Shown here in pieces: positions 22,200 to 55,508 of a stretch of 64,000 nt of DNA; the stretch's first letter is position 1; each line of letters opens with the position of its first letter. The notes under the pieces are model-generated. The model was not told the origin of the DNA and ran no database searches. It saw only the letters and a list, made by a program, of their open reading frames with translations. The stretch spans positions 47,956 to 111,955 of the forward strand of contig DATKWU010000018.1 in assembly GCA_035529375.1 (NCBI GenBank), written 5' to 3'. The translations under genes and the position numbers were made by a program. The DNA comes from Patescibacteria group bacterium (lineage in GTDB: Bacteria > Patescibacteriota > Microgenomatia > PFEM01 > JAHIFH01).

Positions 22200-24164
22200 T
22201 TACTTTGGTTTTGTCCAAGAAGCCCAATCACATTTAGGGTAATTGGAGCAACCATAAAATTGTTTGCCTTTTCTAGTTTTCCTGACCACAATTTCCCCAC
22301 CACATTTTGAACACTTGACTCCTTTAAGTTTCGGCACATAAGGAGCCGTGTATTTACATTCTGGAAACCGGGAACAGGACAAAAACTTACCAAACCTGCC
22401 AATCCGAATCACTAGTTTCCCTTGTTTGCATTCCGGACATTTTTCATCAGTGACTTCAGTAGGAATTTGAACCCGCTCGGCCACTTGAGCTACTCCCTCA
22501 AGCTGTTTTTCAAAAGGCTGGTAAAATTCTTTAATGACTGGCACCCATTTTCTTTTACCATTAGCAATTTCATCTAATTCATCTTCCATCTTGGCGGTAA
22601 AATCATAATCAACAATTTCCGAAAAATATTCGACCAAAAAATCATTAACCGTGGTCCCTAAAGGGGTTGGCTGAAAAAGACCTTCTACCTTTTCCACGTA
22701 TTGACGAGTCTGAATCGTAGAAATGATGGGAGCGTATGTCGAAGGCCGACCAATGCCTCTTTCTTCTAAAGCTTTAATTAAAGAAGCTTCGCTGTATCTG
22801 GGTGGCGCCAGGGTGAATTTTTGTTTGGGATTAAGCTTAACCAAATCTAAATCATCACCTTTTTTAACTTCGGGCAATTCCATCCCTCCCTCTGGCTCCT
22901 GCCGATTATCAAGAATTAACCAACCAGCAAATTTAATAATCTTGCCTTCACTGGTTAAAAGATAAATATTTTTCTTAGAAGTGGCTTGGGTTTTAATCTT
23001 CGTTTTATCCCAAAGAGCGGCTTTCATCTGCGAAGCCAAAGCCCTTTTCCAAATCAATTCATAAAGACGTTGTTCTTCACGACCTAATTTTTCAGAAATT
23101 TTATTAGGCGCTCTTTGGATATCAGTCGGTCTAACCGCCTCGTGGGCCTCTTGAGCCACCTTGGATTTAGTTTGATAAAAATAAGGCTTCTCCGGAACAT
23201 ATTCCTTCCCATAAGTACTATTTATATAGGCGCGCATCTTTTCGACGGCTGACTGAGCCAAATTAAAGGAATCAGTCCGATGATAGGTAATCAAACCTTT
23301 TTCATAAAGACGCTGGGCCGCATACATCGTTCTCTTACTGGAAAAACCTAAACGCCGAACCGCATTCTGTTGTAAAGTGGAAGTACTAAAAGGCGGCAAA
23401 GGTCTTTGTTTAACTTCTTTTCTTTCAACCTCGTAAACCTCGTAATTAGCCTTCTTCAAATCATCAACCATTTCTCGAGATTGAGTTTCATTCTCAATCT
23501 TGACTGTCTGGCCATTTTTCTTAATTAATTTGGCTTCAAAAATAGGGGCGTCCTTTAATTGACCACCAAGAAGCTTCTTTAATTTAGCCCAAATCTCCCA
23601 ATATTCTTCAGGAACGAATTTTTCAATCTCTCTTTCCCGATCAACAATCAAACGAACGGTCACTGACTGAACCCGACCAGCTGATAAACCCCGTCGGATT
23701 TTGCGCCAAAGGAGAGGGGAAAGTTTATAGCCAACTAGCCGATCAAGAATCCGCCGGGCTTGCTGGGCATGAACCAAATCAAGGTTAACTTTCTTAGGAT
23801 CAGCCAAAGCTTTTTCAATTGCCTCTTTAGTAATCTCATGGAAAACAATTCGAGCTAAATCATCGGCTTTTCTTTTAAGAATATAGGCAATATGGAAGGC
23901 AATCGCTTCACCTTCGCGATCCGGGTCAGTCGCCAAAAAAATCTTCTTAGCTTTTTTAGCGGAATCTTTAATTTTCTGAATCGCTTCTTTCTTCTGAGGT
24001 ACCAAAGCATATTCAGGTTTAAAGTCTTTTTCGACGTCAATACTTAATTTCTTTTTAGGCAAATCCCGAATATGACCCATCGTCGAAACCACCTGATAAC
24101 CTTTACCCAAAAAGCGAGTTAAAGTTTTTGATTTCGTTGGTGACTCAACAATAATTAAATTCAT
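22200..24164 (-). CDS. topA: DNA topoisomerase I
   Basis: Toprim N-terminus (LIIVESPTKSKT) and C-terminal C4 zinc ribbons. Confidence 0.9.
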   Translation of the reverse strand: MNLIIVESPTKSKTLTRFLGKGYQVVSTMGHIRDLPKKKLSIDVEKDFKPEYALVPQKKEAIQKIKDSAKKAKKIFLATDPDREGEAIAFHIAYILKRKADDLARIVFHEITKEAIEKALADPKKVNLDLVHAQQARRILDRLVGYKLSPLLWRKIRRGLSAGRVQSVTVRLIVDREREIEKFVPEEYWEIWAKLKKLLGGQLKDAPIFEAKLIKKNGQTVKIENETQSREMVDDLKKANYEVYEVERKEVKQRPLPPFSTSTLQQNAVRRLGFSSKRTMYAAQRLYEKGLITYHRTDSFNLAQSAVEKMRAYINSTYGKEYVPEKPYFYQTKSKVAQEAHEAVRPTDIQRAPNKISEKLGREEQRLYELIWKRALASQMKAALWDKTKIKTQATSKKNIYLLTSEGKIIKFAGWLILDNRQEPEGGMELPEVKKGDDLDLVKLNPKQKFTLAPPRYSEASLIKALEERGIGRPSTYAPIISTIQTRQYVEKVEGLFQPTPLGTTVNDFLVEYFSEIVDYDFTAKMEDELDEIANGKRKWVPVIKEFYQPFEKQLEGVAQVAERVQIPTEVTDEKCPECKQGKLVIRIGRFGKFLSCSRFPECKYTAPYVPKLKGVKCSKCGGEIVVRKTRKGKQFYGCSNYPKCDWASWTKPK

Positions 24165-25249
24165 TTCTTTATTGAATATAACATATTACCCAAATTTTTG
24201 ATTTGACCCTTGATTTCCATCAAACTTATAAGCTTCATTACCTGACCAGGATCAAAACCTGATTCCTGGACAATCTCCTCAATAGATTTTGCCTGACTCT
24301 TAAGTAAAAATAAAATCACTTCTTCTTCAGGATTTTCAGCAACTATTTCCTTTAATCTTTTAATTCTAGTCTCTTTGTCAAAACCTAACTCTTCTAAAAT
24401 ATCATCAACCTCAAAAACAAGTTTGGCTCCCATCTTAATTAAATAAGCCGGACCAGCCGCATTTGGCGAAGTAATCGGACCGGAAACAGCAAAAACCTCC
24501 CGGCCTTGTTCGGCCGCATGACGGGCGGTAATTAAAGTCCCAGATTTTTTCGGCGCTTCAATTACCAATGTCCCTAAAGATAAACCAGAAATAATCCTAT
24601 TCCGGGATGGAAAACTGCCTGGCGTGGGTCTCACCCCTAAAGGAAATTCGGAAACAACTGCTCCATGATCCTTAGTAATCTCCTGAACCAAACCAAGATT
24701 CTCAGGCGGATAAACCAAATCCAAACCACAAGCCAAAACGCCAATTGTCCGACCACCAGCTTTTAAAGCAACCCTATGAGCCAAAGAATCAACCCCGCGA
24801 GCTAATCCAGAAACAATCGTCAAACCGGCTTTTACCAGTCCCTTAACCAGGTTTTCCGTCACCTGATAACCGTAATTTGTCATCCTTCTTGTACCTACCA
24901 CCGCCATTGCTAATTTGTCTCGAGGACTGATAGTGCCTTTACTATATAACACAAATGGCGGATTATCTGTCTTTTTTAAGCTTTCTGGGTAACGATTATC
25001 ATCTAGAAAATAGCACTCTATTTCATTTTCACGCAACCGAAGAAAATACGAATCTGGATTAAAGTCACGCCTGAATCTAACCAACCGAGAAGTTAATTTT
25101 GGTCCCAAACCAATCGCCAACAACTCCCCTTTCTTGGCTTGCCAAGCTTTTTTAGCCGAACCAAAATAATTTTTAAGAAGAGCAAATCTTTTAGGACCAA
25201 TTCCCTCAAAAGCCGAAAAAGCTAACCAAGACAATCTCTCTTCATTCAC
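24161..25249 (-). CDS. dprA: DNA processing protein DprA/Smf
   Basis: Rossmann-like core (GTRRMTNYG...SGLARGVDSLAH). 4-nt overlap with topA. Confidence 0.85.
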   Translation of the reverse strand: MNEERLSWLAFSAFEGIGPKRFALLKNYFGSAKKAWQAKKGELLAIGLGPKLTSRLVRFRRDFNPDSYFLRLRENEIECYFLDDNRYPESLKKTDNPPFVLYSKGTISPRDKLAMAVVGTRRMTNYGYQVTENLVKGLVKAGLTIVSGLARGVDSLAHRVALKAGGRTIGVLACGLDLVYPPENLGLVQEITKDHGAVVSEFPLGVRPTPGSFPSRNRIISGLSLGTLVIEAPKKSGTLITARHAAEQGREVFAVSGPITSPNAAGPAYLIKMGAKLVFEVDDILEELGFDKETRIKRLKEIVAENPEEEVILFLLKSQAKSIEEIVQESGFDPGQVMKLISLMEIKGQIKNLGNMLYSIKK

Positions 25250-25342: not shown

Positions 25343-25774
25343 TTACGGGTGTAAACCGTTTTCTTGAACTTGAATCGAAACCAATTGGTTTGACGGTTGA
25401 TCTGGATGAGGATCTGTTATTCTCCAGACCAAACAGAGAAGAATCATAGCGATGACCCGATTCGGCTGGCAGTTGAGTATGTCATCTACTAACCAGAAGG
25501 CAATCGGATACGAAACCAGCCCGCTGATGAAAATGTAGAAGCTGGTTCTGGCTATGATTCTATCCGTCATCGTCAACCCAATGACTCCAGTCATGATGAA
25601 GAGGAGTGGGATCAAGATCATATAGAAAAGCACAGGCACCTCCCATAGGAGATGAATGCTAATCTCTCTCATCTGAACCCACCTCAGCCAGGTGCTGAAG
25701 ATATGATACTCGAATATCACAGCAGCACCTATCAGACTGAAGTAGTAGAGTCCCGCCAGTACCTTCTTTCTCAT
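25343..25774 (-). CDS. Hypothetical integral membrane protein (GC-rich islet)
   Basis: 143 aa with about 4 predicted TM helices. Local GC is elevated (~48%). Confidence 0.45.
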   Translation of the reverse strand: MRKKVLAGLYYFSLIGAAVIFEYHIFSTWLRWVQMREISIHLLWEVPVLFYMILIPLLFIMTGVIGLTMTDRIIARTSFYIFISGLVSYPIAFWLVDDILNCQPNRVIAMILLCLVWRITDPHPDQPSNQLVSIQVQENGLHP

Positions 25775-25789
25775 CTCTCCCCCTCTCCC

Positions 25790-26077
25790 TTAGTAGGAAT
25801 TCTTCACCATGAAATAGTGGCAAGCAGCCGCTCCCGAGGCAATGCTCGCAACAATCAGGACCATTCTCGGGATATAGCGCCAAGCTAACGCAGGGTCTCT
25901 TAGTATGAGGAGAAACAGGATTATTCCCATGGCCAAGAGTCCAAATATGCCACCCCACATGAACATTCGATATGGCGGCATTGGCGAAGGGTAACCTATC
26001 TTGTCTATCCTCCAGTAATTGAATGCTGCTACGAATAAACAACCGCCCGCGAAACCCTTCAGTAGATCCCAAAGCAT
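25790..26077 (-). CDS. Hypothetical small membrane protein (GC-rich islet)
   Basis: 95 aa with 2-3 TM helices. A strong SD (AAAGGAGGGAGGGG) lies upstream, and TATAAT at about 26140. Confidence 0.45.
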   Translation of the reverse strand: MLWDLLKGFAGGCLFVAAFNYWRIDKIGYPSPMPPYRMFMWGGIFGLLAMGIILFLLILRDPALAWRYIPRMVLIVASIASGAAACHYFMVKNSY

Positions 26078-26158
26078 GGTCCCCTCCCTCCTTTAGTTTA
26101 CTTTTGAGTGTGCTAAAATCTAATATAAATAGTATTCTATCAATTATTATAGGATTTG

Positions 26159-27832
26159 TCAATCAGTTTTAAACCAGACCTCCATTACTTCTTTGACAAT
26201 CGGCGCGGCCACATAAGAACCCTCGCCTCCAGCTTCTACTAGAGCGGTAACGACAATTTCTGGATCATCCACCGGCGCAAAAGCGGTTAACCAAGCATGA
26301 GTTCTGTCTTCAGGATCGCCAAATTCAGCCGTTCCGGTTTTACAGCCTACTTGAGGACTAAAATCAAAGAAAGGAAAAGCGGTCCCTTCAGGCGAACAAG
26401 CTTCTTTCATTCCCTCTTTGATTAATTTCAAAGTTTCCGGTTTTAGTTTTAAATCCACACATTCAGCAGTCTGATCTCCTTGTTTGATTTTGGGTGAACA
26501 AAGCTTGCCATTATTGGCAATGACACTGGTCATCATATTAACCTGCAGAGGTGTTGTTAACAGGTCTGCCTGACCAATGGCAAAATGATAAGTATTGCCT
26601 AAAAACCATTTTTCGCCAATGGTTTTTTCTTTCCATTCTGGTGTCGGCACTAAACCCTTAACCTCTCCTTTCAAATCAATTCTCGTTTCCCGACCCAAAC
26701 CAAACGCCTTACCCCACTCTGCTAATTTATTGGCCCCTACCCACTCGCCAATTTTGTAAAAGAAAGTGTCGGTTGAACGTTTAATCGCCCTGACTAAATT
26801 AATTTCTCCTTCGGTTCGACCGTATTGAGTGTAATACCAATTCTTGTAAATGTAATCACCAATCTGAATAAAACCTTGGTCTTCATAAACAGTTCCTTCA
26901 TCAACTTTACCCTCCTCAATCCCCGCCGCTACCGTCACAATTTTAAAGGTTGATCCAGGTGGATAAGCCCCACTAATGGCCCGATTAAACATGGGTTTTG
27001 ACTCATTAATTAAATCTTCAGACTTAATCTGATTAGGATCAAAGGAAGGCGAAGAAATGAGTACAATAACTTGGCCGGTTTTAACTTCAGTAACCACCAC
27101 GACCCCTGGTCTGCCTTTTAAGGCCTGGTAAGCTACTTTTGAGAGCTGGGCATCAAGGGAAAGATGAAGATCTTGACCTGGCAGAGATTCTGTCCGACCA
27201 ATTTCCCGAACCCGATTCCCGGCCGTGTCCACTTCATAGATAACACCACCATCCTGACCCCGTAGAATCTTCTCATACTCTTCCTCAATTCCGGTCCGAC
27301 CCACCAAATCACCTAATTGCCATTGATTTTTTCTGACTTCCTCTTCACTCGCCTCGCCTAAGTAACCTAAGACATGGGCCAGAGCCTGACCATAAAGATA
27401 ATCTCGACCGACATCTAAACGCAAATCTGCTTCCTTTTTCCCACCAGCCACCTCAATCCTCAAAGCTTCCTCACGACTAATTTCCTCAAAGCAATCCCCT
27501 TCTTCCAAATCACAATTTTCTTTTTTCAATCGGTAAACCGGTTTGTTTTTAATTAAAGGCTTTCCCTGACGATCATAAATCATTCCCCTGGGCGCCGGAA
27601 TGATTTCTTTTTTAATCCGATTCTCCTCAGCTAAAAGCCTATTTCTGGCGCCAAGAATAATCTGCAATTCAAAAAGACGACCAATTAACAATAAAAAACA
27701 AATAATTAAAAAACCATAGAAAAAATAGATTCTGCCTAAAGAAAACCTATTACCTTGTCTATTTTCTATATCTGATTCTGTCAGAAAAGAAGAATCAGGT
27801 TTAGCGGTGATATCTGTAGAAAGTTTCCTCAT
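26159..27832 (-). CDS. mrdA: Peptidoglycan D,D-transpeptidase PBP2
   Basis: STFK active-site motif (PPGSTFKIV), dimerisation and transpeptidase domains. Follows mreCD. Confidence 0.85.
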   Translation of the reverse strand: MRKLSTDITAKPDSSFLTESDIENRQGNRFSLGRIYFFYGFLIICFLLLIGRLFELQIILGARNRLLAEENRIKKEIIPAPRGMIYDRQGKPLIKNKPVYRLKKENCDLEEGDCFEEISREEALRIEVAGGKKEADLRLDVGRDYLYGQALAHVLGYLGEASEEEVRKNQWQLGDLVGRTGIEEEYEKILRGQDGGVIYEVDTAGNRVREIGRTESLPGQDLHLSLDAQLSKVAYQALKGRPGVVVVTEVKTGQVIVLISSPSFDPNQIKSEDLINESKPMFNRAISGAYPPGSTFKIVTVAAGIEEGKVDEGTVYEDQGFIQIGDYIYKNWYYTQYGRTEGEINLVRAIKRSTDTFFYKIGEWVGANKLAEWGKAFGLGRETRIDLKGEVKGLVPTPEWKEKTIGEKWFLGNTYHFAIGQADLLTTPLQVNMMTSVIANNGKLCSPKIKQGDQTAECVDLKLKPETLKLIKEGMKEACSPEGTAFPFFDFSPQVGCKTGTAEFGDPEDRTHAWLTAFAPVDDPEIVVTALVEAGGEGSYVAAPIVKEVMEVWFKTD

Positions 27833-29197: not shown

Positions 29198-31543
29198 CTA
29201 AGGGGGTATTTCCTGCCAAGTGTAAGAAGGGGTAAAGAGCACTGAAGGAGCAGTCATCAAAAAGTCTGGTCGGTAAACAAATTTCTCTGCTGGTCTTGTT
29301 CTGTTCAAATCCTCTCCTAAATCTCTTGCCAACTCAAAAGACTGAGCCACAAAAACTCCTTCACCCACAAACTGAACATCGTTGCCTTCACCAACTTTAT
29401 CAACCTCAAACTCTTTATCAGTAATAAAGACTCCTTCCACTTGAGTTACTGTTTCCGCTACCTTGATTTTTCCTGAGGCAATAATGGCTAAAAAGCCATT
29501 AACATCAAGATTACTATCAATATTCACCTCATTATCAACTAAGATAACAATTTTTGTTCCCTCAGGAATACTCCAACCATCAACCGTTAAAGCATCAGCA
29601 GTGTAGTAAACTCCAGAATCAGATGGTAAACCACCACCGTAATCTTCTTCAGGTGAACCCAAAAGTTCATAAAAGTAATTGAATCTCTTCCGAGAAAATT
29701 CTGTATTGGCTAACCAGCCTTCCACAGAGACGTTCCCTTCCCCCCAAGGATTATCTCCCAAAGTTTCTTTATGAGAAACCACGCCTGGAGTGCCTCCCTC
29801 ACCCGCTAAACAAAAATTATCATCCTCTCCAGGTAAATCAGAATTAATACTCTCTTGAGAATGAACATCACCTTCTTGAGCCTGAAACCAAGACCCAGCC
29901 GCCTTAGTCAAACCAATATTGATTGTCTTAGTTTCTCCTCCCTCAGTTAACATCACTTGATTAGTCTCATCACCCTCATCATCACAATAAATCGGATCAG
30001 AATACTCTCCAGGAAAAGCAGTCATCATCACTGTATGCAATTGATCTATAGGTACCTCAAAGGAATAATCAGGATCAGGAGTATCTGTACCATAACCGGC
30101 AATTTGAACGGTACCCCCAGAAACGGTTTCCCCTAATTCAGAACAGGAAGATCCTTCAAAAACCGTCCCCTGAATAGTTCCAGTTGGAGCAGGATAAAGA
30201 ATTGAATCGGCACAATAACTCCATTCAGCTGTTTTAAACTTAACTCTTGCCATTACCGAATTTTCGCCAGGATTAAGCGTTAAAGGATAACTGAAATTTC
30301 CACCCTCAGGAATATCCATAACTGACCCCCAGGTAGATCCACTATCAATACTTAATTGAATTTTGCCATCTTCAACCGCTCGAAAGTGCCATATTCCCAC
30401 TTTATGGGTATACATCGCATCATCTACGTAATAAACAAGAGAATTATTAATAACTTCAGCTTCTGCTTCATGGACGTCATCTGTTTTTAGTAAATTAAGC
30501 TCCATATCATAGAGCTCAAAACTATTAACATTACAATCATTTTCAGGATTTTCTTTTTCAGATATCTGGGAGTAAACAAAGAAATATTTCGTTCCTCTAT
30601 CCATCTGAATTGTTCGCTTCCCTGAACTGGTGTAACTAGCGATGATTGCATTTGCCCTTAAGCCATCACTAAGATGCCAACGCATTCCTCGGGAAAAATT
30701 AAGACTACCGTGGCAACCTGTCTTGTTACACATCCTAAAATCAACACTGAAAGTAAAAGATTTGATCACATAACCAGTTGGAGCAGTAACCTTAAGAGCA
30801 GCTCCACACGGTTGTTCGCCGTCACATATTATGTGCTCAGTAAATCTTAACCGACTGTCTCCCGCAAGGTGTCCAAATTTTCCAGGACCACAAGTTAACT
30901 CACAATCATAGCAGGCGTGACTAGAAGGAGCACAAGTAGTTCCAAAAGCAGGATAACAACCGCGACAGGGTTGACCGGCACTTATACAACTCCTTCTTTT
31001 ATACAAACAGCCATTAATTACTTGACCAAACCGGCAAACTTGGTCACCACCTCCTTCTGTGTAGCCATTACCACCCGGTCCAATACCGTAATACTGAAAA
31101 AGATTCCTGAAAGCGTTACCATGATTACCAACATTCCATGTTTCAAGATAGCCCTCATCCCTTAATTGATTGTCACTCTTGCCCTGAATTCGAGGAGCTA
31201 CTTCAATAAAACAGACAGCGTCTCTTTCAGACCCTTTATTATGTACGGCAAAATCATTGGCGAAAAAGGTTTCTTCACCATCAACCGAAAGATTGTAAAC
31301 TTCAACCGGCTCTTGTTTGTATTCAAGTTTAGTGATTTGCTCAGGCACCAAACCCTCTTCTCCCTTAACAAAAACCACATCGCCAATATTTAATTCCTTA
31401 ACCTGAATAAATCCAGCCTCTTTAATCTCCGGTCCAGGAATTTCCACCACCTCTTGCGCATGAATGGTTTTAGAGAAGACGAAGAATAAACTAATTCCTA
31501 ATATCCAATATCCAATATCTCTAACCGAGAGCAGTTTTTTCAT
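29198..31543 (-). CDS. Large secreted Cys-rich protein beginning with a Hint C-terminal (blocks F/G) segment
   Basis: Hydrophobic N-terminus, then GFIQVKELNIGDVVFVKG...VYNLSVDGEETFFANDFAVHN, then ~680 aa of Cys-rich extracellular sequence. Confidence 0.6.
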   Translation of the reverse strand: MKKLLSVRDIGYWILGISLFFVFSKTIHAQEVVEIPGPEIKEAGFIQVKELNIGDVVFVKGEEGLVPEQITKLEYKQEPVEVYNLSVDGEETFFANDFAVHNKGSERDAVCFIEVAPRIQGKSDNQLRDEGYLETWNVGNHGNAFRNLFQYYGIGPGGNGYTEGGGDQVCRFGQVINGCLYKRRSCISAGQPCRGCYPAFGTTCAPSSHACYDCELTCGPGKFGHLAGDSRLRFTEHIICDGEQPCGAALKVTAPTGYVIKSFTFSVDFRMCNKTGCHGSLNFSRGMRWHLSDGLRANAIIASYTSSGKRTIQMDRGTKYFFVYSQISEKENPENDCNVNSFELYDMELNLLKTDDVHEAEAEVINNSLVYYVDDAMYTHKVGIWHFRAVEDGKIQLSIDSGSTWGSVMDIPEGGNFSYPLTLNPGENSVMARVKFKTAEWSYCADSILYPAPTGTIQGTVFEGSSCSELGETVSGGTVQIAGYGTDTPDPDYSFEVPIDQLHTVMMTAFPGEYSDPIYCDDEGDETNQVMLTEGGETKTINIGLTKAAGSWFQAQEGDVHSQESINSDLPGEDDNFCLAGEGGTPGVVSHKETLGDNPWGEGNVSVEGWLANTEFSRKRFNYFYELLGSPEEDYGGGLPSDSGVYYTADALTVDGWSIPEGTKIVILVDNEVNIDSNLDVNGFLAIIASGKIKVAETVTQVEGVFITDKEFEVDKVGEGNDVQFVGEGVFVAQSFELARDLGEDLNRTRPAEKFVYRPDFLMTAPSVLFTPSYTWQEIPP

Positions 31544-32838: not shown

Positions 32839-34353
32839 TCAATGATTATATCTCATGTATTCTCCTATAAATTGGGGCCAATATAAATCAACCATCGCCA
32901 TTATCTCATCTTGAGCTCTTTCATCAAATTGAAGTAACTGAGCACTAAAGAGTTCATCCCATGATAAATGATTCCCTCTTACTTCTTCGTAATCATCCGT
33001 CATAAGGCAAGAACCGCTAGCCATCGAGTTAAGCAACCCTTTAAATGCGTCTTTACCTCCCTCTTTCAGGACACCATAAACATAAACAACCGGAATGAGG
33101 CGAACCGAAGGCCCTTCTGGATAGAGAACTTCAAGCCCTTTCTCTCTCAATATTTTTAAAGCAAAATCCTCCACAGCCTCTTGGGTGGCATGAACAAATT
33201 TCGATTCTGGAGTTCTCGTCGCCCAATCAACACCTTCAATACCTGGGGCTCTTTGGGCTTGAGGGAAGGAGTGAATTGCTTCATGGATATATTGGACTAT
33301 GAAATCAGCTGCATATTTATTATAATCCGAAACTGGTTTTGCATAACTATCTCCAAATATCATGACGCTGTTTGGATAACCCAAGCCTGCCCCAACTGTA
33401 CTCCATCCAGGAAGAATCAACGAACTAAGAATTTCCTCTTCCTCCTCAGGTAGTTGAGGAATAACTCCATCACGAAACAAAGCAGGGTTAAGATTGTCTC
33501 TAAACATTTCATTGATAGACCTTGAGATTGGTATAATATCAGAAACCACCTGTTTCATAAATGGACTCCTGATTCGTTCTTCGTGGGAGGCTAATGATAG
33601 GTATAAACCCTCTTCTGTTGGAAAAGGAACCGAATCAATGATCTCCCCACCTCTTCTTTCTCCATTTAAATAGGCATAAATCCAGAAATCCCTAAAAGGC
33701 CCAGTTCCTGGTTCTATGTTGCCTTTTCCTCGATTGACTACCTCAAAGAAATTGATAACTCTCTCATTGAGTCTCGAATCTAGCTCGGGATCAATCCGGT
33801 CCACTAATCCTTTGGGGATAACAAATTCACCCGGCCCGGAAGTCAAAGAAATTCTACATATCGCGTTGATCTCGGGGGACAGGATCTCCGCTTCTCCCCC
33901 CACTCCCGCTCCTTCAGGATTGACAATATTTAGTTGACCACTTCTGATTTCATCCGCGGTAGGGGTGACGACATTTAAAACAACATTTTGTTCTTGATTG
34001 ATTGCTTTAATTGTTGCCTCAAACTCCCCCCCTTCTCTATCTTCTGGAGCAGGAAGAATTCTTGGAGTTGGGCCTGATTCGGAGGCTGAAGAAACACCAA
34101 TACTAGCCGCTCCCTTAATTTGAGCAGCCCCCAGGGCAGCAAGAACGAGACCCGTAGTAACTGCTTGACTTCTCGATATTCGCTTTCTGGGTTCTAATCC
34201 AGTTAACTGTTCCTCAGATCCCAACCCCTGCCTTCTTCTCTCCCTTTCCTCCCTAATTCCTCTACGACTGGCTACCTGACTCTCTCTTAGCGCTTGTTTA
34301 TATAATGGACCGCCGTTAAGCTCGTCGGTTTCTTTGCCCATGTTTTCTTCCAT
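32839..34353 (-). CDS. Membrane-anchored HExxH (putative zincin) protein
   Basis: HEAIH motif near the C-terminal third and a TM anchor around residue 70. The ORF track start at 34374 is a TTG. The ATG at 34353 (MEENMGKE) has a GGGAG SD. Confidence 0.5.
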   Translation of the reverse strand: MEENMGKETDELNGGPLYKQALRESQVASRRGIREERERRRQGLGSEEQLTGLEPRKRISRSQAVTTGLVLAALGAAQIKGAASIGVSSASESGPTPRILPAPEDREGGEFEATIKAINQEQNVVLNVVTPTADEIRSGQLNIVNPEGAGVGGEAEILSPEINAICRISLTSGPGEFVIPKGLVDRIDPELDSRLNERVINFFEVVNRGKGNIEPGTGPFRDFWIYAYLNGERRGGEIIDSVPFPTEEGLYLSLASHEERIRSPFMKQVVSDIIPISRSINEMFRDNLNPALFRDGVIPQLPEEEEEILSSLILPGWSTVGAGLGYPNSVMIFGDSYAKPVSDYNKYAADFIVQYIHEAIHSFPQAQRAPGIEGVDWATRTPESKFVHATQEAVEDFALKILREKGLEVLYPEGPSVRLIPVVYVYGVLKEGGKDAFKGLLNSMASGSCLMTDDYEEVRGNHLSWDELFSAQLLQFDERAQDEIMAMVDLYWPQFIGEYMRYNH

Positions 34354-34453
34354 CTTTCTAAAAATCTCCCGCAATTCGGAGGATGTTAAACTACTTCAAA
34401 ATTCCACGAAAAGATTCAATTTTGGTTTAAAAATCATTTGGGCAATTGAAATT

Positions 34454-34462
34454 ATTATATCA
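34454..34462 (-). promoter_or_regulatory. Extended -10 promoter box TGATATAAT (minus-strand sense) for the 32839..34353 gene
   Basis: Plus-strand ATTATATCA, followed by a conserved ~95-nt 5'-UTR module. Confidence 0.45.
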
Positions 34463-34512
34463 CTCTTATTAGGTGAGGGGAATCTCTAGCCAAGGTGTCC
34501 CTATTCCCATAA

Positions 34513-35214
34513 TTACCTCAATGATTTTTTCTCTCGGAGAATATTATAGTCAATATATCTATTTGCAAATCCATCACAATATATTTCTTTGTCTTCATCT
34601 CCAATTTTGACTCCTTGCAACTTAAGCACCTCGTGGCCTAATTCATGGAGGAGAGTCCACTCTAATCTTTTTATACCAATTAGCTGATTGTATTTTGAAT
34701 AATCTCTTTTACCACTATTTTCCGGCTCTGCTAAAGATGCCGAAACACTTAGCCACCTGGTTTTACCCTCTCCGCTTTCAATCTCTCGAGCTATTCCCAA
34801 AGCAAATTTTCCTTCATTTCTACCACTTTTGATTGGGATTAAATCACGATAGAAGATAAACATTAACGGCATTAGTTCTCTGCAATCAACACCGCTATCT
34901 TCTAAAATTGCCTGTATTGTCTTATCATCAACTGTATAGTCTAGTCCAGGGTCCATACTGAATTCTTTAAAATCGCACAAACTCTCTGGGGTAGGAGGGG
35001 AAATTATTGATTCAGCGCGACCTGGACGGATAGACGACTTGGGGGACAAATTTTCCAAAACCCCATTTCGCTTTAGTAAATATGAGGCTCCTTTTATCAT
35101 CAAGATTCCAGTTGCTGCAGTTCCAACTATTAGAAATTCTCTCCTAGTCAATGGTCTTCTTCTTTTTTCTTGGCGGATTGAAATTGACTCGTTTTTACCT
35201 TGTTCAATTACCAT
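34513..35214 (-). CDS. Tat-signal secreted HExxH (zincin-like) protein
   Basis: Twin-arginine motif (TRREFLIVGTAATGILM) and HELGHE near the C-terminus. GGAGGA SD 10 nt upstream. Confidence 0.55.
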   Translation of the reverse strand: MVIEQGKNESISIRQEKRRRPLTRREFLIVGTAATGILMIKGASYLLKRNGVLENLSPKSSIRPGRAESIISPPTPESLCDFKEFSMDPGLDYTVDDKTIQAILEDSGVDCRELMPLMFIFYRDLIPIKSGRNEGKFALGIAREIESGEGKTRWLSVSASLAEPENSGKRDYSKYNQLIGIKRLEWTLLHELGHEVLKLQGVKIGDEDKEIYCDGFANRYIDYNILREKKSLR

Positions 35215-35312
35215 TATAAAAAATCCTCCGTTTTTCGGATGATATTAAACTACTTTATTTATCTACCAAAAGATTCAATTTTGGTTTAAAAATCATTTTG
35301 ACAACTATGAAA

Positions 35313-35321
35313 ATTATACCA
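35313..35321 (-). promoter_or_regulatory. Extended -10 promoter box TGGTATAAT (minus-strand sense) for the 34513..35214 gene
   Basis: Plus-strand ATTATACCA, followed by the same conserved 5'-UTR module as upstream of the neighbouring gene. Confidence 0.45.
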
Positions 35322-35367
35322 CTTTTTAGCAAGAATTTCAGACTAACAACTCTGGTATACTAAAATT

Positions 35368-36848
35368 ATGAAGTTCAAACAACTAAAATCTCTTTTCCTC
35401 TATCTGACCGCCTTTCTTTGCGGCGTTGCCGGCATGATAGTGGAACTGACCGCCGTTCGTTTAGTCGCCCCTTTTTTCGGCTCATCGATGGAGGTCTGGG
35501 CAACGATTATTGCTTTGGTGATGACTGCCCTCGCCTTAGGCTACTTCTTTGGTGGCCAGCTTTCAAAGAGGATCAAGAAAATAGATTCGGTTGTTTATTT
35601 GATTATTGCTTCTGCCGGCTTGTTAATCAGCTTTTCCTATCTTTTTGTCGAGCCTATTGTTTCTTTTACTTCTCTCTCCTTACAATTAGCCAAGTTTTCC
35701 CTTTCTTTCAAAACCTTTTTAGTCGTCCTTTCTCTTTTCTTTCTGCCTGTTTTTCTTCTCGGCTCAATCTATCCCTTAATTATTGCCAGCTTTAAAAGTA
35801 AGAAATCAGGCCAGGCCGCGGGCCTTATTTTTGCTATTTCCACTGCCGGCAGCATCCTCGGCACTCTTCTTCCTTCTTTTGTTCTTATTCCCTTAATCGG
35901 CACTAAATTAACTTTTTTCTTAACCGGTATTGCTTTGGAAATCATTGCCTTAATTGGTCTACCCAAATTCCAGAAAATTATCCCGGCCTTAATTTTAATC
36001 ATCCTCCTTTTTAACTTTCCCAAATCCCAAAAGCTTTCATTTTCACCAAATAATGAGGTTATTTATCAAACCGAATCTCTTTATCAAGAAATCAAGGTTA
36101 TCAAAAGGGGAAAGATTTATCTTCTTTCCTTAGGTCCAAATAGTTTTATCAGCTCTTCTTATTCGCCTTATTCCTATTTAACCGATGGATGCTTTGATTA
36201 TTTCAACCTTTTGCCTTTGTTGAGAAACGACAAAAACCTAGACGTTCTTATCATTGGCTTAGGTGCTGGTACTATTTCTCGCCAGTACCAGCATTTCTTT
36301 TCTAATCAATATGATCTCAAAATCGATGGGGTGGAAATTGATCCTGAAGTAATCAAGGTGGGCAAAAAATATTTTGAATTAGAGCAACCTAGCTTAACCA
36401 TCTATCAAATGGATGGCCGGGCTTTTCTTAATCAAACTGAAAAAAAATATAACGTTATCATTGTCGACGCCTATGCCCGCCAAACCTATATTCCTTTTCA
36501 TTTAGCCACTGAATAGTTTTTTCAGGAAGCTAAAAATCATCTTCAAGAAAAAGGTATCCTTGCCTTTAATATTGCCACTTCTTCCCAGAACAGCTTCCGT
36601 TTTCAAACAATCAGTCAAACAGTAAAATCGGTTTTCAACTACACTTATTCTTTTTCAGTTGATAATGGTAATAGCTTAATTTTTGCTAGTAATGAATCTA
36701 TAAAGCCACTAAAGAATATTAATTTAGAGGAAGTTCCTGATGAGCTAAAAGCATTAATCCAAAATCTGACTCTTCAATTCTTAAAACCGACTAATCTTGA
36801 TAAGCCAAATTTAATCCTCAAAGACGACACTGCTCCAACAAGACTTTA
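35368..36848 (+). pseudogene. Membrane-bound spermidine synthase-like protein (polyamine aminopropyltransferase fused to N-terminal polytopic membrane domain) interrupted by a single in-frame TAG at 36514-36516
   Basis: About 7 TM helices, then a PABS domain (VLIIGLGAGT, IDPEV, DGRAFL, VIIVD, HLATE-stop-FFQEAK..ASNES) that continues in the same frame for 110 more codons to TAA at 36846-36848. Confidence 0.6.
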
Positions 36849-36896
36849 ATTGTTTTTTAATTATTGGGATTTTTTTAATTTCTTCTGAATTTCTTT

Positions 36897-37946
36897 CTAC
36901 CTTAAACCACCCGTCACTCTAACCTTTTTTAATAAAGATTCATCTTCCAAAACCTTACCACAACCTCTAACCACGGCATTCATCGGATTATCGGCCAACC
37001 AAACAGGCATCTTGGTTTCCTCGGCAATTAATTTATCTAAACCCACCAATTGAGAGCCACCGCCACATAAAGTAATCCCCCGAGCAATAATATCGGCCAC
37101 CAACTCTGGGGGTGTTTCTTCAATCACTTCCGAAATCTGATCAACAATCTGACGAACGACTGGTGAAATCGCTTCCCTAATCTCTTCTGAACCAATTTTC
37201 AAAGATTTAGGCAAACCTGTTTCCAAACCCCGACCTCGAACAATCATCTCCCGAATTCTTTCTCGAGAGTAAGCTGAACCAAGTTGAATTTTAATCTCCT
37301 CAGCCGTGGCTTCACCTAGAAGAAGAGAATATTTTAATCTCATGTAAGTGATAACCGCTTCATCCATTTCATCGCCAGCAATCCGCAAACAACGCTCAAT
37401 CACAATTCCCCCAAGAGAGATAACCGCAATTTCCGTGGTGCCCCCACCAATGTCCACTAAAAGAGCGCCTTCTGGCTTTTCAATTGGCAAACCAATCCCA
37501 ATCGCCGCCGCCATTGGTTCTTCAATCAAATAAGCTTTTCTTGCTCCTGCACTTAAAGCCGCATCCTGAACCGCCTTTCTTTCGACTTCGGTTACGCCTG
37601 AAGGAATACCAATGACCATTCTTGGCTTAGGAATTCTGGGAAAAAGAGGTCCTGACTGATGAATTTCCTCAATGTATTTCTTAAGTATCGCCTCGGCAGC
37701 ATCGAAATCAGCAATCACCCCATCCTTTAAAGGCCGAATCGTCTCAATCATTTCCGGTGTCTTGCCAATCATTTTCTTGGCTTGACTGCCAATCGCCAAA
37801 ATCTCTTTGGTTTTTTTATGGCGGGCAACCACCGACGGTTCCCGAATGACAATTCCCTTTTCCTTAACCCAAACCAGAGTATTGGAAGTGCCTAAATCAA
37901 TGCCGACATCATGAGAGATTAGACTAAAAAGAGAGTCAAATATCAT
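36897..37946 (-). CDS. mreB: Rod shape-determining protein MreB
   Basis: Actin-fold motifs (GIDLGTSNT, LVDIGGGTTE). Confidence 0.9.
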   Translation of the reverse strand: MIFDSLFSLISHDVGIDLGTSNTLVWVKEKGIVIREPSVVARHKKTKEILAIGSQAKKMIGKTPEMIETIRPLKDGVIADFDAAEAILKKYIEEIHQSGPLFPRIPKPRMVIGIPSGVTEVERKAVQDAALSAGARKAYLIEEPMAAAIGIGLPIEKPEGALLVDIGGGTTEIAVISLGGIVIERCLRIAGDEMDEAVITYMRLKYSLLLGEATAEEIKIQLGSAYSRERIREMIVRGRGLETGLPKSLKIGSEEIREAISPVVRQIVDQISEVIEETPPELVADIIARGITLCGGGSQLVGLDKLIAEETKMPVWLADNPMNAVVRGCGKVLEDESLLKKVRVTGGLR

Positions 37947-38004
37947 TTAAAAAAATAATCTTAAAGAAGCCATTAAATAATGGGCTTAGTATAACACAAA
38001 TTCT

Positions 38005-38337: not shown

Positions 38338-38367
38338 GAAATTTGTTAAACTAAGTTAAGGTCAGGA

Positions 38368-40443
38368 ATGAACAAGACAATTTCCCTTTTGCTTAATCGA
38401 ATTATTGAATCAAGTTTTTATCTTCTTTTTTTCCTGGTTCCTTTGATCCTGACTCCCTGGAACTACGAGCTTTTTGAGTTTAATAAAATGATCCTCGCCT
38501 ATCTCCTAACAGTCGTTATTATTGCTGCCTGGATTGTTAAAATGATTACTGAGAAAAAGATTATCTTTCGTCGGACTATCCTTGACCTTCCTTTAATCCT
38601 TTTTCTTGGTTCCCAAATTATGGCTACTATTTATAGTATTGATCGTCATACTTCCCTTTGGGGTTATTACAGCCGCTTCAATGGCGGTCTTTTCCCCACC
38701 ATCAGCTATCTTCTTCTTTACTGGGCCTATGTCAGTAACTTTAATAAAGAAAAAACCCTGACCACCATTCGCTTTACTCTAGCTTCCACTATCCTCGTCT
38801 CTCTTTATGGCCTTGCTGAACATTTTGGTATTGATGCTCAATATTGGGTCCAAGAAGTTCAAATCAGAGTTTTCTCCACTTTTGGCCAGCCTAATTGGTT
38901 AGCCGCCTGGCTAGTGGCACTCTTACCCCTCACCTGGGCAATGATTCTTCTAAAAAAACAATTAATCTTCAAAAAATTTTCTTTTCCTTATTTTGGTTAT
39001 GTCTTAACTACCATCTTTTTCCTTTGTCTTCTTTACACCAAATCCCGCTCTGGCTTGATTGGTTTGGCAGTGGCCTATCTGGTTTTCTGGGGTTTAACTG
39101 GTTTTCTTAACCGTCAAAAGATAAAAGCATTAACTAAACCCTTTATCAGCCTTTCTCTTCTTCTCCTAGTTCTAACCTTCCTGACCGGCACTCCCTGGAC
39201 CCCTCATCTTGGTCAAATCAAAGAAAAAATAAAAGGAACAACTCAAGAAGCAATCATCTCGGCCGAAGCCCAACAACCAGGCTTGCTTATTAGTGAATCT
39301 GGTGATATCCGCAAAATTGTTTGGCAGGGCGCCCTGGAAATCTGGAAAAACCACCCGATTTTAGGCACCGGCGTTGAAACCTTTGGTTACGCTTATTATT
39401 GGTACCGCCCCCGAGCCCATAATGATGTTTCGGAATGGGATTTACTCTACAACAAAGCCCATAATGAATACCTAACTCTTTTAGCCAACACCGGCTTAAT
39501 TGGTCTCTCTACCTACCTAATCTTAATCGGCACTTTTCTTTTCTGGTCTCTCAAACAAATCATCATTCACTTAAAAAAAGCCAAAGAAACCACTCTCTTA
39601 GTGACGGCTCTCCTCGCTGGTTATATCAGTATCCTCATCACCAACTTTTTTGGCTTTTCGGTAGTCCCGATTAGTCTCCTTTTCTTTCTTATTCCGGCCA
39701 TAGCTATCACTCTCGTCAGTCAGTCAGAAAAAGAACCAAAGCCTAAAAAACAAATTATAGAAAGCAAACAATGGGCCGTGATTATCCTCATCTCTCTTCT
39801 CTCTCTAGGAGCCATCATTTATCTCATCAAATTCTGGTATGCTGATACCCGCTTTGCTTTGGCGGAAAAACTTAATGAGGGAGCTAAATATGATCAGGCC
39901 TATAATGAATTGAAAACCGCTATCAGCCTTCATCCCAGTGAACCCTATTACCGCGCCGAAATGGCTCTCTCTCTGGCTGGTCTAGCCGAATTAGCCCAAG
40001 AAGCGGATGACGCCTCGCTTTCCGCCCAACTAGTTGATTTAGCTATTGCTGAATCAGACCAGGCTTTAAAAACCAGTCCCTATCACCTTAACTTCTGGAA
40101 AAAACGGGCCAAGATGTTTATTAGTCTGGCCTTAGCCAATCCTCACTATGAACAGGCAGCCCTTGAAACTCTCCTCAAAGCCACGGACCTCGCTCCAACT
40201 GATGCCAAAATTCAATACAATCTAGCTCTCCTTTATTCTCATCTTGGTCAAAAAGAAACCGCCATTAAAACCCTGGAACACACCATCGAATTAAAACCCA
40301 ACTACGCTGACGTCCGCTACGCCTTAGCTCTTTTTTATGAAGAAAATAAGCAAAGAGAAGAAGCGAGAAAACAATTAAACTATATTCTGGAAAAGATTAA
40401 TCCGGCAGATACCCGAGCCAGCGACAAACTCAAAACCCTTTGA
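38368..40443 (+). CDS. O-antigen ligase-like (Wzy_C) polytopic membrane protein with C-terminal TPR repeats
   Basis: AHNEYLTLLANTGLIGL motif, ~10 TM helices and C-terminal TPR-like repeats. 4-nt overlap with the downstream radical SAM gene. Confidence 0.7.
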   Translation: MNKTISLLLNRIIESSFYLLFFLVPLILTPWNYELFEFNKMILAYLLTVVIIAAWIVKMITEKKIIFRRTILDLPLILFLGSQIMATIYSIDRHTSLWGYYSRFNGGLFPTISYLLLYWAYVSNFNKEKTLTTIRFTLASTILVSLYGLAEHFGIDAQYWVQEVQIRVFSTFGQPNWLAAWLVALLPLTWAMILLKKQLIFKKFSFPYFGYVLTTIFFLCLLYTKSRSGLIGLAVAYLVFWGLTGFLNRQKIKALTKPFISLSLLLLVLTFLTGTPWTPHLGQIKEKIKGTTQEAIISAEAQQPGLLISESGDIRKIVWQGALEIWKNHPILGTGVETFGYAYYWYRPRAHNDVSEWDLLYNKAHNEYLTLLANTGLIGLSTYLILIGTFLFWSLKQIIIHLKKAKETTLLVTALLAGYISILITNFFGFSVVPISLLFFLIPAIAITLVSQSEKEPKPKKQIIESKQWAVIILISLLSLGAIIYLIKFWYADTRFALAEKLNEGAKYDQAYNELKTAISLHPSEPYYRAEMALSLAGLAELAQEADDASLSAQLVDLAIAESDQALKTSPYHLNFWKKRAKMFISLALANPHYEQAALETLLKATDLAPTDAKIQYNLALLYSHLGQKETAIKTLEHTIELKPNYADVRYALALFYEENKQREEARKQLNYILEKINPADTRASDKLKTL

Positions 40444-42788
40444 TGAAAAAAACCCTGCTCGCCAAAACATTAAAGAATAAAAAAGTTGCCTGTTTTACCT
40501 GCCAACGCCGATGCCAAATCTCACCAGACCAATGGGGTTTTTGTCAAACTAGGATTAATAAAAACGGAACCCTCAAATCAGTCATCTATGGCGTCGTTTC
40601 TTCAGTTAACCTTGATCCGATTGAAAAAAAGCCAGTCTTTCATTATAAACCAGGCTCAAATTGTCTTTCTCTTGGGACTTATGGTTGTAATTTCAAATGT
40701 GCTTTTTGTTTTCTTCCTGACACAAATATTGCTACAGAAAAAGGTATTTATAACCTTAAAAAACTTTTTGAACTTAATAAAAAACCGCGTGTTTATAGTC
40801 ATACCGGAAAACTAAGAAAAATTAATAAAGTTTTTCGTCACCGATATGATGGAAAAATTATAACAATAAAACCTTATTACGCCCCTCAAATAGAATGTAC
40901 TCCTTCACACGAATTTTTCGTCACAACTAATTCTCAAGATAATAAAATTCAAAAAATAAAAGCTAAAGATTTAACTAAAAAGCATTATCTGCTAATTCCT
41001 AAAAATTATCCTTTTTCAAAACTGTCCACTTTTGATCTTAACAAGGTTCTTTACTCTTCAATAGGAGAATATAGAAAATCAAGAAAGACTTCATACAACG
41101 ATATCTTAAAAATTCTCGAATTAAGTCAAAATGGAACCACATCTAGAATTATAGGAGATACTTTTAATCTCCATCCCGCGTATGTTAGAACTTTACGTTC
41201 ACGATTGAAAAATAAGAAAATCATTCAGAAAGAGATTGTTTTTGGAAAAAACCTCCTAATAGAAAAAAATGGAGGAATTAAATTTAAGACTGAAAAACAA
41301 CCATCACTTCCTCGTTTTATTGCTCTTGACAAGAATCTTGCTAAACTTCTGGGTTATTATTGCGCAGAAGGATGGGTAGTAAAAAATAAATCACGTCCTA
41401 ATTCATTTCAAATAAGTTTTGCTTTCTCAAAAAAAGAAAGACATTATGCTGAAGAGGTAAAGAAGTTAATTGTAACCATTTTCGGGATCAATCCAAAAAT
41501 CGTGACGCGAGAAACGACAGTCACGGTAGAAATCGGTAAGTCAAGTTTAGCTCTTTTCTTCAAAAATCTTTGTGGTTCGACAGCCTTGAAAAAAAGAGTC
41601 CCAGCAGAAATTAATCAATCCCCAAGAGAAATTATTCAACAATTCCTAGAAGGATATATTAATGGCGATGGTTGGCGAAAACCTGACGAAATAGCAATTA
41701 ATACTGTCTCTCCTACGCTCGCTATTGGAATATATTGGCTGGTCTTAAAACTAGGCTTTTTACCACGATTTTATAAGTGGGAACCATCCATTACTAAAAA
41801 AATCGGTACAAGATTAGTCAAACAATCAACTCTCTATTACGTCAAATGGAAAATTAAAAAACCAACTACTCCTAAAGCTAAAGCTTCGACCAAATATATA
41901 GAAAAAAATGGTTACTATTTCATACCAATAAATAAAATCAATAAAAGAAAGTATCGCGGAGAAGTTTTTAATCTTGAAATTGAAAAAGATCATTCGTATT
42001 TAGCAAACTTTATTGGTGTAGGAAATTGCCAAAATTGGGATATTAGCCATACCAACGGGGCTTCGATTAACCTTGACAACCAAAAACTTCTTTCTCCAAA
42101 AGAAGCTATTAAAATGGCGAAAAAATCAGGCGCTGAAGGAATTGCCTGGACCTACAACGAACCGGCTATCTGGCTAGAATACTCTCTAGATGGCGCCAAA
42201 CTCGCCCAAAAAGAGAAGATTTACACTTGTTGGGTGACTAATGGCTATGCCACTAAAGAAGCGATTGATAAAATTGCTCCCTATCTCAACATTTACCGAG
42301 TTGACCTGAAAAGTTTTGATAATAAGCTCTACAAAAAATTAATTGGTGTCCCCCAAGCCAAAGGGGTTTTCGAAGTCACCAAATACGTTCATAATCAATA
42401 TCCCGAGATTCATCTTGAATGCGTGACCAACATTATCCCCACCTGGAATGATTCAGAAAATAATCTCAAGAAAATAGCTCACTGGATTGTTAAAAACCTG
42501 GGCAAAAAAACTCCCTGGCACGTCACCCGATTCTTTCCCTACGCTGACCTGACCAATGTCCCCCCTACGCCACCAGAAACTCTGCTCAAAGCCAGAAAAA
42601 TAGGGATGAAAGAAGGTTTAGAATTTGTCTATATTGGTAACCTACCAGTTGATGAAGAAGACGATACCTTTTGTCCTAAGTGTCATAACTTAGCCATTAG
42701 AAGAACTGGCTACCGAACCGAAATCCTAGCCGTTGATAAAGACGGTCACTGTTCTGACTGTGGTGAAGATTTGAATATCAGAATGTGA
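40440..42788 (+). CDS. Radical SAM enzyme of the AmmeMemoRadiSam-system type (PFL-activating-enzyme-like) containing a 440-aa intein
   Basis: N-extein ends GCNFKCAF and the C-extein starts CQNWDISH. This rebuilds CNFKCAFCQNW (CxxxCxxC-QNW) with a spliced length of ~342 aa. A C-terminal Cys pair is also present. Confidence 0.75.
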   Translation: MMKKTLLAKTLKNKKVACFTCQRRCQISPDQWGFCQTRINKNGTLKSVIYGVVSSVNLDPIEKKPVFHYKPGSNCLSLGTYGCNFKCAFCFLPDTNIATEKGIYNLKKLFELNKKPRVYSHTGKLRKINKVFRHRYDGKIITIKPYYAPQIECTPSHEFFVTTNSQDNKIQKIKAKDLTKKHYLLIPKNYPFSKLSTFDLNKVLYSSIGEYRKSRKTSYNDILKILELSQNGTTSRIIGDTFNLHPAYVRTLRSRLKNKKIIQKEIVFGKNLLIEKNGGIKFKTEKQPSLPRFIALDKNLAKLLGYYCAEGWVVKNKSRPNSFQISFAFSKKERHYAEEVKKLIVTIFGINPKIVTRETTVTVEIGKSSLALFFKNLCGSTALKKRVPAEINQSPREIIQQFLEGYINGDGWRKPDEIAINTVSPTLAIGIYWLVLKLGFLPRFYKWEPSITKKIGTRLVKQSTLYYVKWKIKKPTTPKAKASTKYIEKNGYYFIPINKINKRKYRGEVFNLEIEKDHSYLANFIGVGNCQNWDISHTNGASINLDNQKLLSPKEAIKMAKKSGAEGIAWTYNEPAIWLEYSLDGAKLAQKEKIYTCWVTNGYATKEAIDKIAPYLNIYRVDLKSFDNKLYKKLIGVPQAKGVFEVTKYVHNQYPEIHLECVTNIIPTWNDSENNLKKIAHWIVKNLGKKTPWHVTRFFPYADLTNVPPTPPETLLKARKIGMKEGLEFVYIGNLPVDEEDDTFCPKCHNLAIRRTGYRTEILAVDKDGHCSDCGEDLNIRM
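40707..42026 (+). mobile_element. Intein with LAGLIDADG homing endonuclease domain
   Basis: Block A CFLPDTNIATEKG, block B TPSHEF, LAGLIDADG-like motifs (LLGYYCAEGW, FLEGYINGDGW) and block G VFNLEIEKDHSYLANFIGVGN followed by a +1 Cys. Confidence 0.7.
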
Positions 42789-45705: not shown

Positions 45706-46575
45706 ATGGAAAAAGTCATTACCCCTTCAGTTCTTTTTGGCCTCTTAGCCATGTTTGGCTGGGGCACGGGCAGTTTTGTAGTCGCCTCTTTAACTAAAAA
45801 GTTTGGCGTTTTTAAAGTCGGTTTTTTAATCCAAATCCTAGCTTTTTTTCCTACCCTTCTCCTCCTCCCAATCATTAAAGAAGAATTAATTCTTAATCAA
45901 ACTTGGTTTTACCTTAGTTTAATTGCTCTGATTGGCAGTCTCGCTTATATCTCCATTCTCAAGAGTTACGAACAAGGGATTATTTCCATTGTTGTCCCCT
46001 TAAGTTCTGTTTGGGCCATTATTACAGCCATCCTCAGTTTTATCTTTTTAAAAGAAAGCGTAGTTCCCATTAAAATAATCGGCATGAGTATTGCCATTAT
46101 TGGCATTATTCTCATTTCCACTGACTTTAGAAAAGTCCTTAAAGAAAAAAAGATTAAAATTTATAAAGGGGTTAAATGGGCCAGTCTAGCCGCTCTGGCC
46201 TGGGGAGTGGAAATGTTTCTCCTCGCTTTTTTCTCAAGAAAATTAGGCTGGTACACAGCCAATCTTGGTCTCCGATTCTGGAACCTGGTTATCTTTTTCC
46301 TCTTAGCTGTTTTAATTAAACAAAAAATTCCTCTTCTCTTTAAAAAAATCCCTAGATTAATCTGGCTGGCTATTTTAATTGATGTTTTTACTCTCACCAC
46401 CTATAACCTAGGCTTAGTTAGAGGTGAACCAGGTGTGGTTTCAGTGATTGCCAGCACCAGCCCTCTAATCACGATTATTCTCGCCACCCTTTTCTTCAAA
46501 GAAAAAATAGAACTAATCCAAAAAATAGGCATCTTCTTGATTCTCGCTGGTATTGCTAGTTTGTCTTTGGTTTAG
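45706..46575 (+). CDS. DMT superfamily (EamA-like) transporter
   Basis: 289 aa, ~10 TM helices in two EamA-like halves. Confidence 0.65.
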   Translation: MEKVITPSVLFGLLAMFGWGTGSFVVASLTKKFGVFKVGFLIQILAFFPTLLLLPIIKEELILNQTWFYLSLIALIGSLAYISILKSYEQGIISIVVPLSSVWAIITAILSFIFLKESVVPIKIIGMSIAIIGIILISTDFRKVLKEKKIKIYKGVKWASLAALAWGVEMFLLAFFSRKLGWYTANLGLRFWNLVIFFLLAVLIKQKIPLLFKKIPRLIWLAILIDVFTLTTYNLGLVRGEPGVVSVIASTSPLITIILATLFFKEKIELIQKIGIFLILAGIASLSLV

Positions 46576-54989: not shown

Positions 54990-55508
54990 ATGGATCCAGT
55001 CATTAAACTTGCCAAACAAACAATTGAAACCTATCTTAAAACCAACCAAATTCCTCCTTTACCAGAAAAATTGCCTTCTGAATTGCTCAAGAAAAGAGCT
55101 GGGGTTTTTGTCTCTATCCATAAAAAAGACGGCTCCCTTAGAGGCTGTATTGGTACCTTCTTACCGACTAAACCCAACCTTGCCCTAGAAATTATAACCA
55201 ATGCCATCTCTTCAGCCACTCAGGACCCCAGATTCCCACCAATCACCAAAGAAGAACTCCCATCTTTAATCTATTCTGTTGATGTTCTTTCAGAACCAAA
55301 AAGAGCCAACAAAAAACAACTCAACCCCCAAAAACATGGTCTGATTGTGGCCACTAAAGATGGCCGCCGGGGATTGCTTTTACCGGCTCTCCCTAATGTT
55401 AAAACCGTAGAGCACCAAATTGAAATTTGCAAAATGAAAGCAGGGATTGGTCCCAAAGAAGAAGTCGAATTCCAAACTTTTACAGTCAAGAGACACGAAG
55501 AAAAGTAG
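54990..55508 (+). CDS. AMMECR1 domain protein
   Basis: AGVFVSIHKKDGSLRGCIGT signature. Confidence 0.8.
   Translation: MDPVIKLAKQTIETYLKTNQIPPLPEKLPSELLKKRAGVFVSIHKKDGSLRGCIGTFLPTKPNLALEIITNAISSATQDPRFPPITKEELPSLIYSVDVLSEPKRANKKQLNPQKHGLIVATKDGRRGLLLPALPNVKTVEHQIEICKMKAGIGPKEEVEFQTFTVKRHEEK

Follow-up and report, generated by a model that had tools for sequence, protein, structure and literature searches.

Soluble polyamine aminopropyltransferases (SpeE), whose reaction is the transfer of an aminopropyl group from decarboxylated SAM to putrescine, have been solved from Thermus thermophilus (1UIR and 3ANX), Thermotoga maritima (1INL and 1JQ3) and human (2O06). In these enzymes the acidic residues of a D-(S/T)-x-D-P motif, located after strand 4, have roles in amine binding and deprotonation. 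The gene described here resembles SpeE in its soluble-domain fold and in sequence, where the G-x-G loop, the motifs E-I-D and D-G and the first of the Asp residues behind strand 4 can be recognised; unlike SpeE, it is fused to a membrane domain. Such a fusion, with a multi-helix membrane domain and a C-terminal aminopropyltransferase-like domain, is the hallmark of the NCBIfam family NF037959, "fused MFS/spermidine synthase", which goes under the name 'predicted membrane-bound spermidine synthase' in IMG. Hundreds of NF037959-type homologues of about 490-535 aa are found in Patescibacteria, Chloroflexota and other phyla; a literature search by family name retrieved no work on the fused family.

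The gene lies in a 64,000-nucleotide stretch of a contig from an uncultured Patescibacteria group bacterium, the whole of which was analysed and is called the window below, and both characteristic domains of the family are encoded in it. It differs from the other family members in having a premature TAG at an invariant Glu codon, with a product of only 382 aa. Amber recoding by pyrrolysine, by suppressor tRNAs or in amber-recoded phages likewise involves a UAG that lies in frame within a conserved domain; in contrast to those systems, the homologues here have Glu instead of a conserved UAG, TAG stops the neighbouring genes, and the window is devoid of a tRNA-CUA. Ordinary nonsense pseudogenes offer the closer parallel, since they likewise combine one in-frame stop, no restart codon, a standard code and an alignable remnant. 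Nothing material separates the present locus from them, except that its remnant is unusually clean and carries no second lesion. We estimate a probability of roughly 0.8 that a recent nonsense mutation has produced a young pseudogene, present at high frequency in the sampled population.

Results

The reading frame starts with the ATG at 35368 on the plus strand and closes, as an earlier note on this DNA had reported, at a TAG at 36514-36516, giving a truncated ORF (35368..36516, +) of 382 codons plus TAG. The premature TAG (36514..36516, +) is codon 383; the local frame at the stop reads ACT GAA TAG TTT TTT CAG, and the wider sequence context is ACTGAATAGTTTTTTCAG. Beyond the TAG the same frame forms a stop-free tail of exactly 110 codons (36517..36846, +), the number claimed earlier. 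The original TAA of the full-length gene is at 36847..36849 (+), one base later than the 36846-36848 previously assigned to it (35368 + 3 x 493 = 36847). From base composition, the chance of 110 open codons is about 0.0013, and of the 7,486 stop-to-stop gaps counted in the six frames of the window, only 77 reach a length of at least 110 codons. ATG, GTG and TTG are all absent from the reading frame within 36517-36846, and hence no separate polypeptide is expected from a canonical start; a split gene with its own downstream start was ruled out on this ground.

Profile comparisons place the gene in the fused family. Translation across the TAG gives a 493-aa product that matches NF037959 with 184.9 bits (curated cutoff 40 bits) over profile positions 3-476 of 480, a full-length match that requires the segment 3' of the TAG, and this sequence similarity identifies the read-through product as a predicted full-length member of the family. 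Similarly, the Pfam Spermine_synth profile (PF01564) is matched at positions 11-100 by the truncated ORF (38.7 bits) and at positions 11-157 when the TAG is read through (55.6 bits). The earlier assignment of a membrane-bound, spermidine-synthase-like gene agrees with the NF037959 and Pfam matches, and since both alignments cross the stop, the intact domain described beyond the TAG is real as well. The actual frame is interrupted by the TAG at codon 383, and its product ends after strand 4.

A database search retrieved 759 homologues. The top match (P0001) is the truncated 382-aa product itself; the truncated ORF corresponds exactly to HUV43124.1 at NCBI, an entry named 'fused MFS/spermidine synthase' that comes from the MAG of a Patescibacteria group bacterium and is annotated there as a protein and not as a pseudogene. 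The best full-length homologues (P0002-P0007) are 74-76% identical, 475-493 aa long and uninterrupted, and a scan of genome contigs yielded, among the matches listed, relatives at 39% identity or less. None of the 120 homologues listed in the search ends at the TAG position. The shorter homologues P0026, P0028 and P0038 lack N-terminal sequence and have a complete C-terminal end; P0038 (385 aa), which was considered as a second truncated homologue, was rejected because its truncation is N-terminal and its C-terminus complete.

The domain structure was derived from an AlphaFold model of the orthologue P0004, which has the same length as the read-through product, is 75% identical to it and was modelled with a pLDDT of 92 and a pTM of 0.82. 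The model contains eight long helices (residues 3-37, 41-68, 72-88, 90-108, 112-140, 147-177, 179-197 and 204-215), followed by a beta-hairpin subdomain and then a Rossmann-type domain with strands at 291-297, 317-323, 344-347, 362-367, 393-404, 426-432 and 437-443. By this model and the NF037959 coverage, the N-terminal membrane domain spans approximately residues 1-215 (35368..36012, +). Ahead of the stop, the aminopropyltransferase-like domain (36055..36513, +) comprises the beta-hairpin subdomain and Rossmann strands 1-4, and contains GLGAGT, VEID, DGR and the invariant D367. The helix that follows strand 4 is encoded in the tail at 36517..36846, as are strands 5-7 and, at the C-terminus, a helix and tail. 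Foldseek aligned the soluble domain of P0004 with solved aminopropyltransferases (1UIR, 6O65, 1JQ3, 2O06 and others) at E-values of about 1e-10 over some 250-280 columns. The mutated Glu corresponds to residue 384 in P0004 numbering and lies at the start of helix 383-391, just after strand 4. Because the stop falls at the start of this helix, the truncated protein would, according to the model, be without helix 383-391, without strands 5-7 of the seven-stranded core and without the C-terminal helix.

In a 23-sequence alignment, all 22 homologues carry Glu where the window gene has TAG, in the context HLATQ-E-FF, which agrees with the earlier expectation of Glu, Lys or Arg in the orthologues and narrows it to the first. 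The same Glu is at least 90% conserved in a 102-sequence alignment. The column before this Glu is variable, being mostly Gln, with Glu in the window gene and in P0020. At the DNA level, the orthologues P0002-P0006 (490-493 aa, 74-76% identical, all intact) have GAA or GAG at the site, and the stop is most simply explained by one G>T change, a transversion that would have turned GAG into TAG. Three features of a nonsense pseudogene are seen: the sense codon of the orthologues is one step away, TAG is a true terminator in this organism, and an assembly artefact is unlikely.

The gene scores 57.3 bits against TIGR00417, the SpeE equivalog (cutoff 249.55), and 63.1 bits against PRK00811, also SpeE (cutoff 260). 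With both scores far under their cutoffs, "spermidine-synthase-like" is the right description, and "spermidine synthase" is not an established label for the gene. In the alignment to 1UIR (Thermus SpeE), which runs through the mutated site and pairs the position of residue 383 with the Glu of LYTVEFY, the motif DLTDP pairs with DAYAR (residues 367-371, 36466..36480). Of the two acidic residues that SpeE has after strand 4, only the first is present (D367, an invariant residue of the family); Ala takes the place of the second. Given the absence of the second acidic residue, spermidine synthase activity is doubtful and should not be assumed; judging from the sequences, the same doubt extends to all of the NF037959-like proteins encountered here.

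The simplest course of events can be outlined as follows. A single base change, GAG to TAG, would have converted the invariant Glu codon to a stop, within the one enzymatic domain that the protein has. Translation would then end at the TAG, and the 382-residue product would keep the membrane domain and transferase strands 1-4. A catalytic domain without strands 5-7 would most likely be unable to fold or work, and loss of function is accordingly the most likely outcome for a modelled seven-stranded fold deprived of these strands. The remaining 110 codons would represent a still-undecayed remnant, and the gene would be a young pseudogene or, in the best case, a crippled allele.

The state of the tail bears on the age of the lesion. 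It contains no extra stops and no frameshifts, and all 14 of its 14 conserved columns are kept. Raw distances had suggested decay: the C-terminal part of the window gene is 52% identical to its orthologues as against 62% among the orthologues, with a dN of about 0.38 versus about 0.24, whereas the N-terminal 382 residues show 82% identity in both comparisons and a dN of 0.10-0.13. Decay of the tail was dropped as an explanation on the basis of Tajima relative-rate tests with five outgroups, which counted 10.4 window-specific changes in the tail versus 12.7, i.e. no excess, and of singleton counts in the tail, which are ordinary; the N-terminal part likewise exhibits no window-specific excess in these tests. 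The greater distance of the C-terminal part most likely reflects tree position and not decay. As dS is saturated (1.2 to above 3), dN/dS is uninformative. The earlier statement that no decay is visible downstream of the TAG therefore holds for stops, frameshifts, conserved columns and rates alike.

Per unit of neutral divergence, the tail offers a target of about 13 for mutations to a stop codon. That no new stop has arisen limits the neutral divergence since the event to less than about 0.22 substitutions per site, and, as a rough estimate, the retention of conserved residues tightens this bound to less than roughly 0.1. Two readings fit the sequence alone: a young lesion, or a tail on which selection still acts. 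From the lack of a second lesion in the remnant we infer that the mutation is probably recent; an intact 110-codon remnant would also be expected from continued selection by way of readthrough.

The second of these possibilities corresponds to a functional, low-level or programmed UAG readthrough, in which a near-cognate or suppressor tRNA would allow the full 493-aa protein to be made and its tail to be selected. The unimpaired tail just described, with its conserved columns and its unaccelerated rate, fits this explanation, as does the finding that the TAG allele is the only one seen, on eight contigs. The RNA at 36508..36630 (+) also folds somewhat better than its shuffles (-21 kcal/mol vs -13.5 +/- 3.3 kcal/mol; z = -2.28, with 5 of 200 shuffles folding equally well), but this is a weak signal. 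No orthologue has a stop at this position; all have Glu, so the site is not a conserved recoding site, and because the replaced residue is invariant, most amino acids inserted at the UAG would be non-native. Neither pattern that characterizes amber recoding, a UAG kept in relatives or one recurring in-frame in other genes of the window, was found.

The use of TAG elsewhere in the window also argues against readthrough. Among 68 long ORFs, 33 end with TAA, 24 with TGA and 11 with TAG. At least four well-defined genes nearby end with TAG at their Pfam profile ends, namely EamA (45706..46575; profile position 134 of 135 reached at residue 287 of 289), AMMECR1 (54990..55508; position 167 of 168 reached at residue 168 of 172), MreB (36897..37946, -) and a 2-hydroxyacid dehydrogenase. 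The first two had been cited in the earlier note as evidence that TAG is a genuine stop, and both do end where their families end. The tRNAs in the 64-kb window are two tRNA-Thr and one tRNA-Tyr, with none that has a CUA anticodon; an Rfam scan of 34300-38400 gave no match, a terminator and promoter scan around the TAG revealed nothing meaningful, and the context of the TAG does not stand out among the other TAG stops of the window. On balance, we regard functional readthrough as unlikely, and assign a similarly small chance to the reading in which the TAG would be tolerated through a useful rate of readthrough that keeps the full-length protein beside the truncated one. Of the options named earlier, low-level readthrough therefore survives as a minor possibility that has gained no positive support, and a very recent nonsense mutation fits all of the data.

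Also improbable is a functional role of the truncated protein itself, with the membrane domain, alone or with half of the transferase domain, being useful and the C-terminal part dispensable. The N-terminal 382 residues are indeed as conserved as they are among the orthologues, and the allele appears to be fixed in the sampled contigs. However, a very recent mutation predicts the same conservation of the N-terminal part equally well, the lack of any listed homologue with this end point gives such a short form no precedent, and the cut removes three of the seven strands of a single compact fold. Moreover, an old allele with a dispensable tail should show decay, and none was found.

A sequencing or assembly artefact, in which the organism carries GAG and the TAG is a consensus error, would account for a stop that is one base away from a sense codon and is followed by a flawless frame, but an independently recurring consensus G>T error is improbable, and we consider this explanation to be very improbable in view of the following data. 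The identical 382-aa product is called on eight contigs from ENA, Logan, NCBI and JGI sources, which represent different assemblers (the ENA contig being megahit-style). Two of these contigs were read, and at the consensus level both are 100% identical to the window: ENA assembly ERZ27256834 (a 112-kb contig, 7149 bp compared) and a Logan contig common to three runs (SRR8554643 and two others; 4248 bp). An assembler-specific error is thus very unlikely, and sequencing error, one of the options listed in the earlier note, has become so too. No intact allele with more than 76% identity was found in the protein search; the 90% cluster of the 382-aa protein was looked at as well and contains that one member only. 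Two scans of the JGI metagenome collection by DNA pattern, in which any codon was allowed at this position so as to include a GAG allele, gave no match of any kind. At the level of contigs the TAG allele appears to be fixed in the sampled population; a minority GAG allele may still be present. The assemblies may stem from related samples with one clone, in which case they are uninformative on the age of the mutation.

Global amber reassignment, which had been thought unlikely at the outset, can be dismissed, since a further 10 ORFs of 100 aa or more in the window are closed by TAG, the four complete genes above among them. Nor is any other gene in the 64-kb window split by an in-frame stop. 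Three same-frame pairs were examined as candidate split genes and rejected: 14575..15120/13408..14574 and 25343..25774/24161..25249 involve separate complete genes (the RRF, M50 protease and DprA of these two pairs are each complete), and the pair 1502..2176/851..1501 has its own ATG and is without a Pfam match.

The window retains a gene neighbourhood that is seen at orthologous loci. Downstream of the gene in the window are a Wzy_C (O-antigen-ligase-like) and TPR membrane protein (38368..40443, +) and a radical-SAM gene (40440..42788, +). At the P0002 and P0006 loci the spermidine-synthase-like gene is directly followed by the Wzy_C/TPR membrane protein and then by the radical-SAM gene; at the P0005 locus one small gene lies between the first two, and in the window the two are separated by the minus-strand MreB gene together with a 110-aa ORF. 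The linkage of the fused gene to Wzy_C/TPR recurs in related Patescibacteria contigs (loci L086, L088 and L089), and at a further locus (L083) other cassettes are inserted (Asn_synthase, AbiEii and HicA). This Wzy_C/TPR neighbourhood hints that the family may have an envelope-related role rather than one in cytoplasmic polyamine synthesis.

Several other features of the window were observed in passing. The radical-SAM gene (782 aa) has Pfam matches to Intein_splicing at residues 125-525 and to LAGLIDADG_3 at residues 299-376; it holds an intein with a LAGLIDADG homing endonuclease, and its syntenic relatives are only about 337-354 aa long. A repeat of about 113 bp with 80% identity by blastn (34360..34472 and 35219..35329) has its copies immediately upstream of the minus-strand genes 32839..34374 and 34513..35214, both of which are without a Pfam match, and may represent a promoter or 5' leader common to the two genes. 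The 781-aa ORF at 29198..31543 (-) has a weak match to PT-HINT (pretoxin Hint; 22.4 bits vs a cutoff of 27.7) and could be a polymorphic-toxin-like protein. Finally, the ORFs 25343..25774 (-) and 25659..26162 (-), neither with a convincing Pfam match, overlap by 116 nt; they could be overlapping genes, or one of them could be spurious.

Discussion

The locus is most likely a nonsense pseudogene of the ordinary kind, in a known but uncharacterised family, and its truncated protein has already been deposited. Were readthrough to be true instead, the gene would be a case of natural, functional amber readthrough in an ultra-small bacterium, and as such would be of interest for the translation biology of the candidate phyla radiation. 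With a recent nonsense mutation as the preferred reading, the consequence of the finding is mainly for annotation. HUV43124.1 should be seen as the product of a nonsense-interrupted gene rather than as a family member that is naturally short, and the gene should not be counted as functional in metabolic reconstructions of this MAG. For the family as a whole, the usual 'spermidine synthase' label may mislead, as a canonical acidic residue is absent and the gene has, in these Patescibacteria, a Wzy_C/TPR envelope neighbour.
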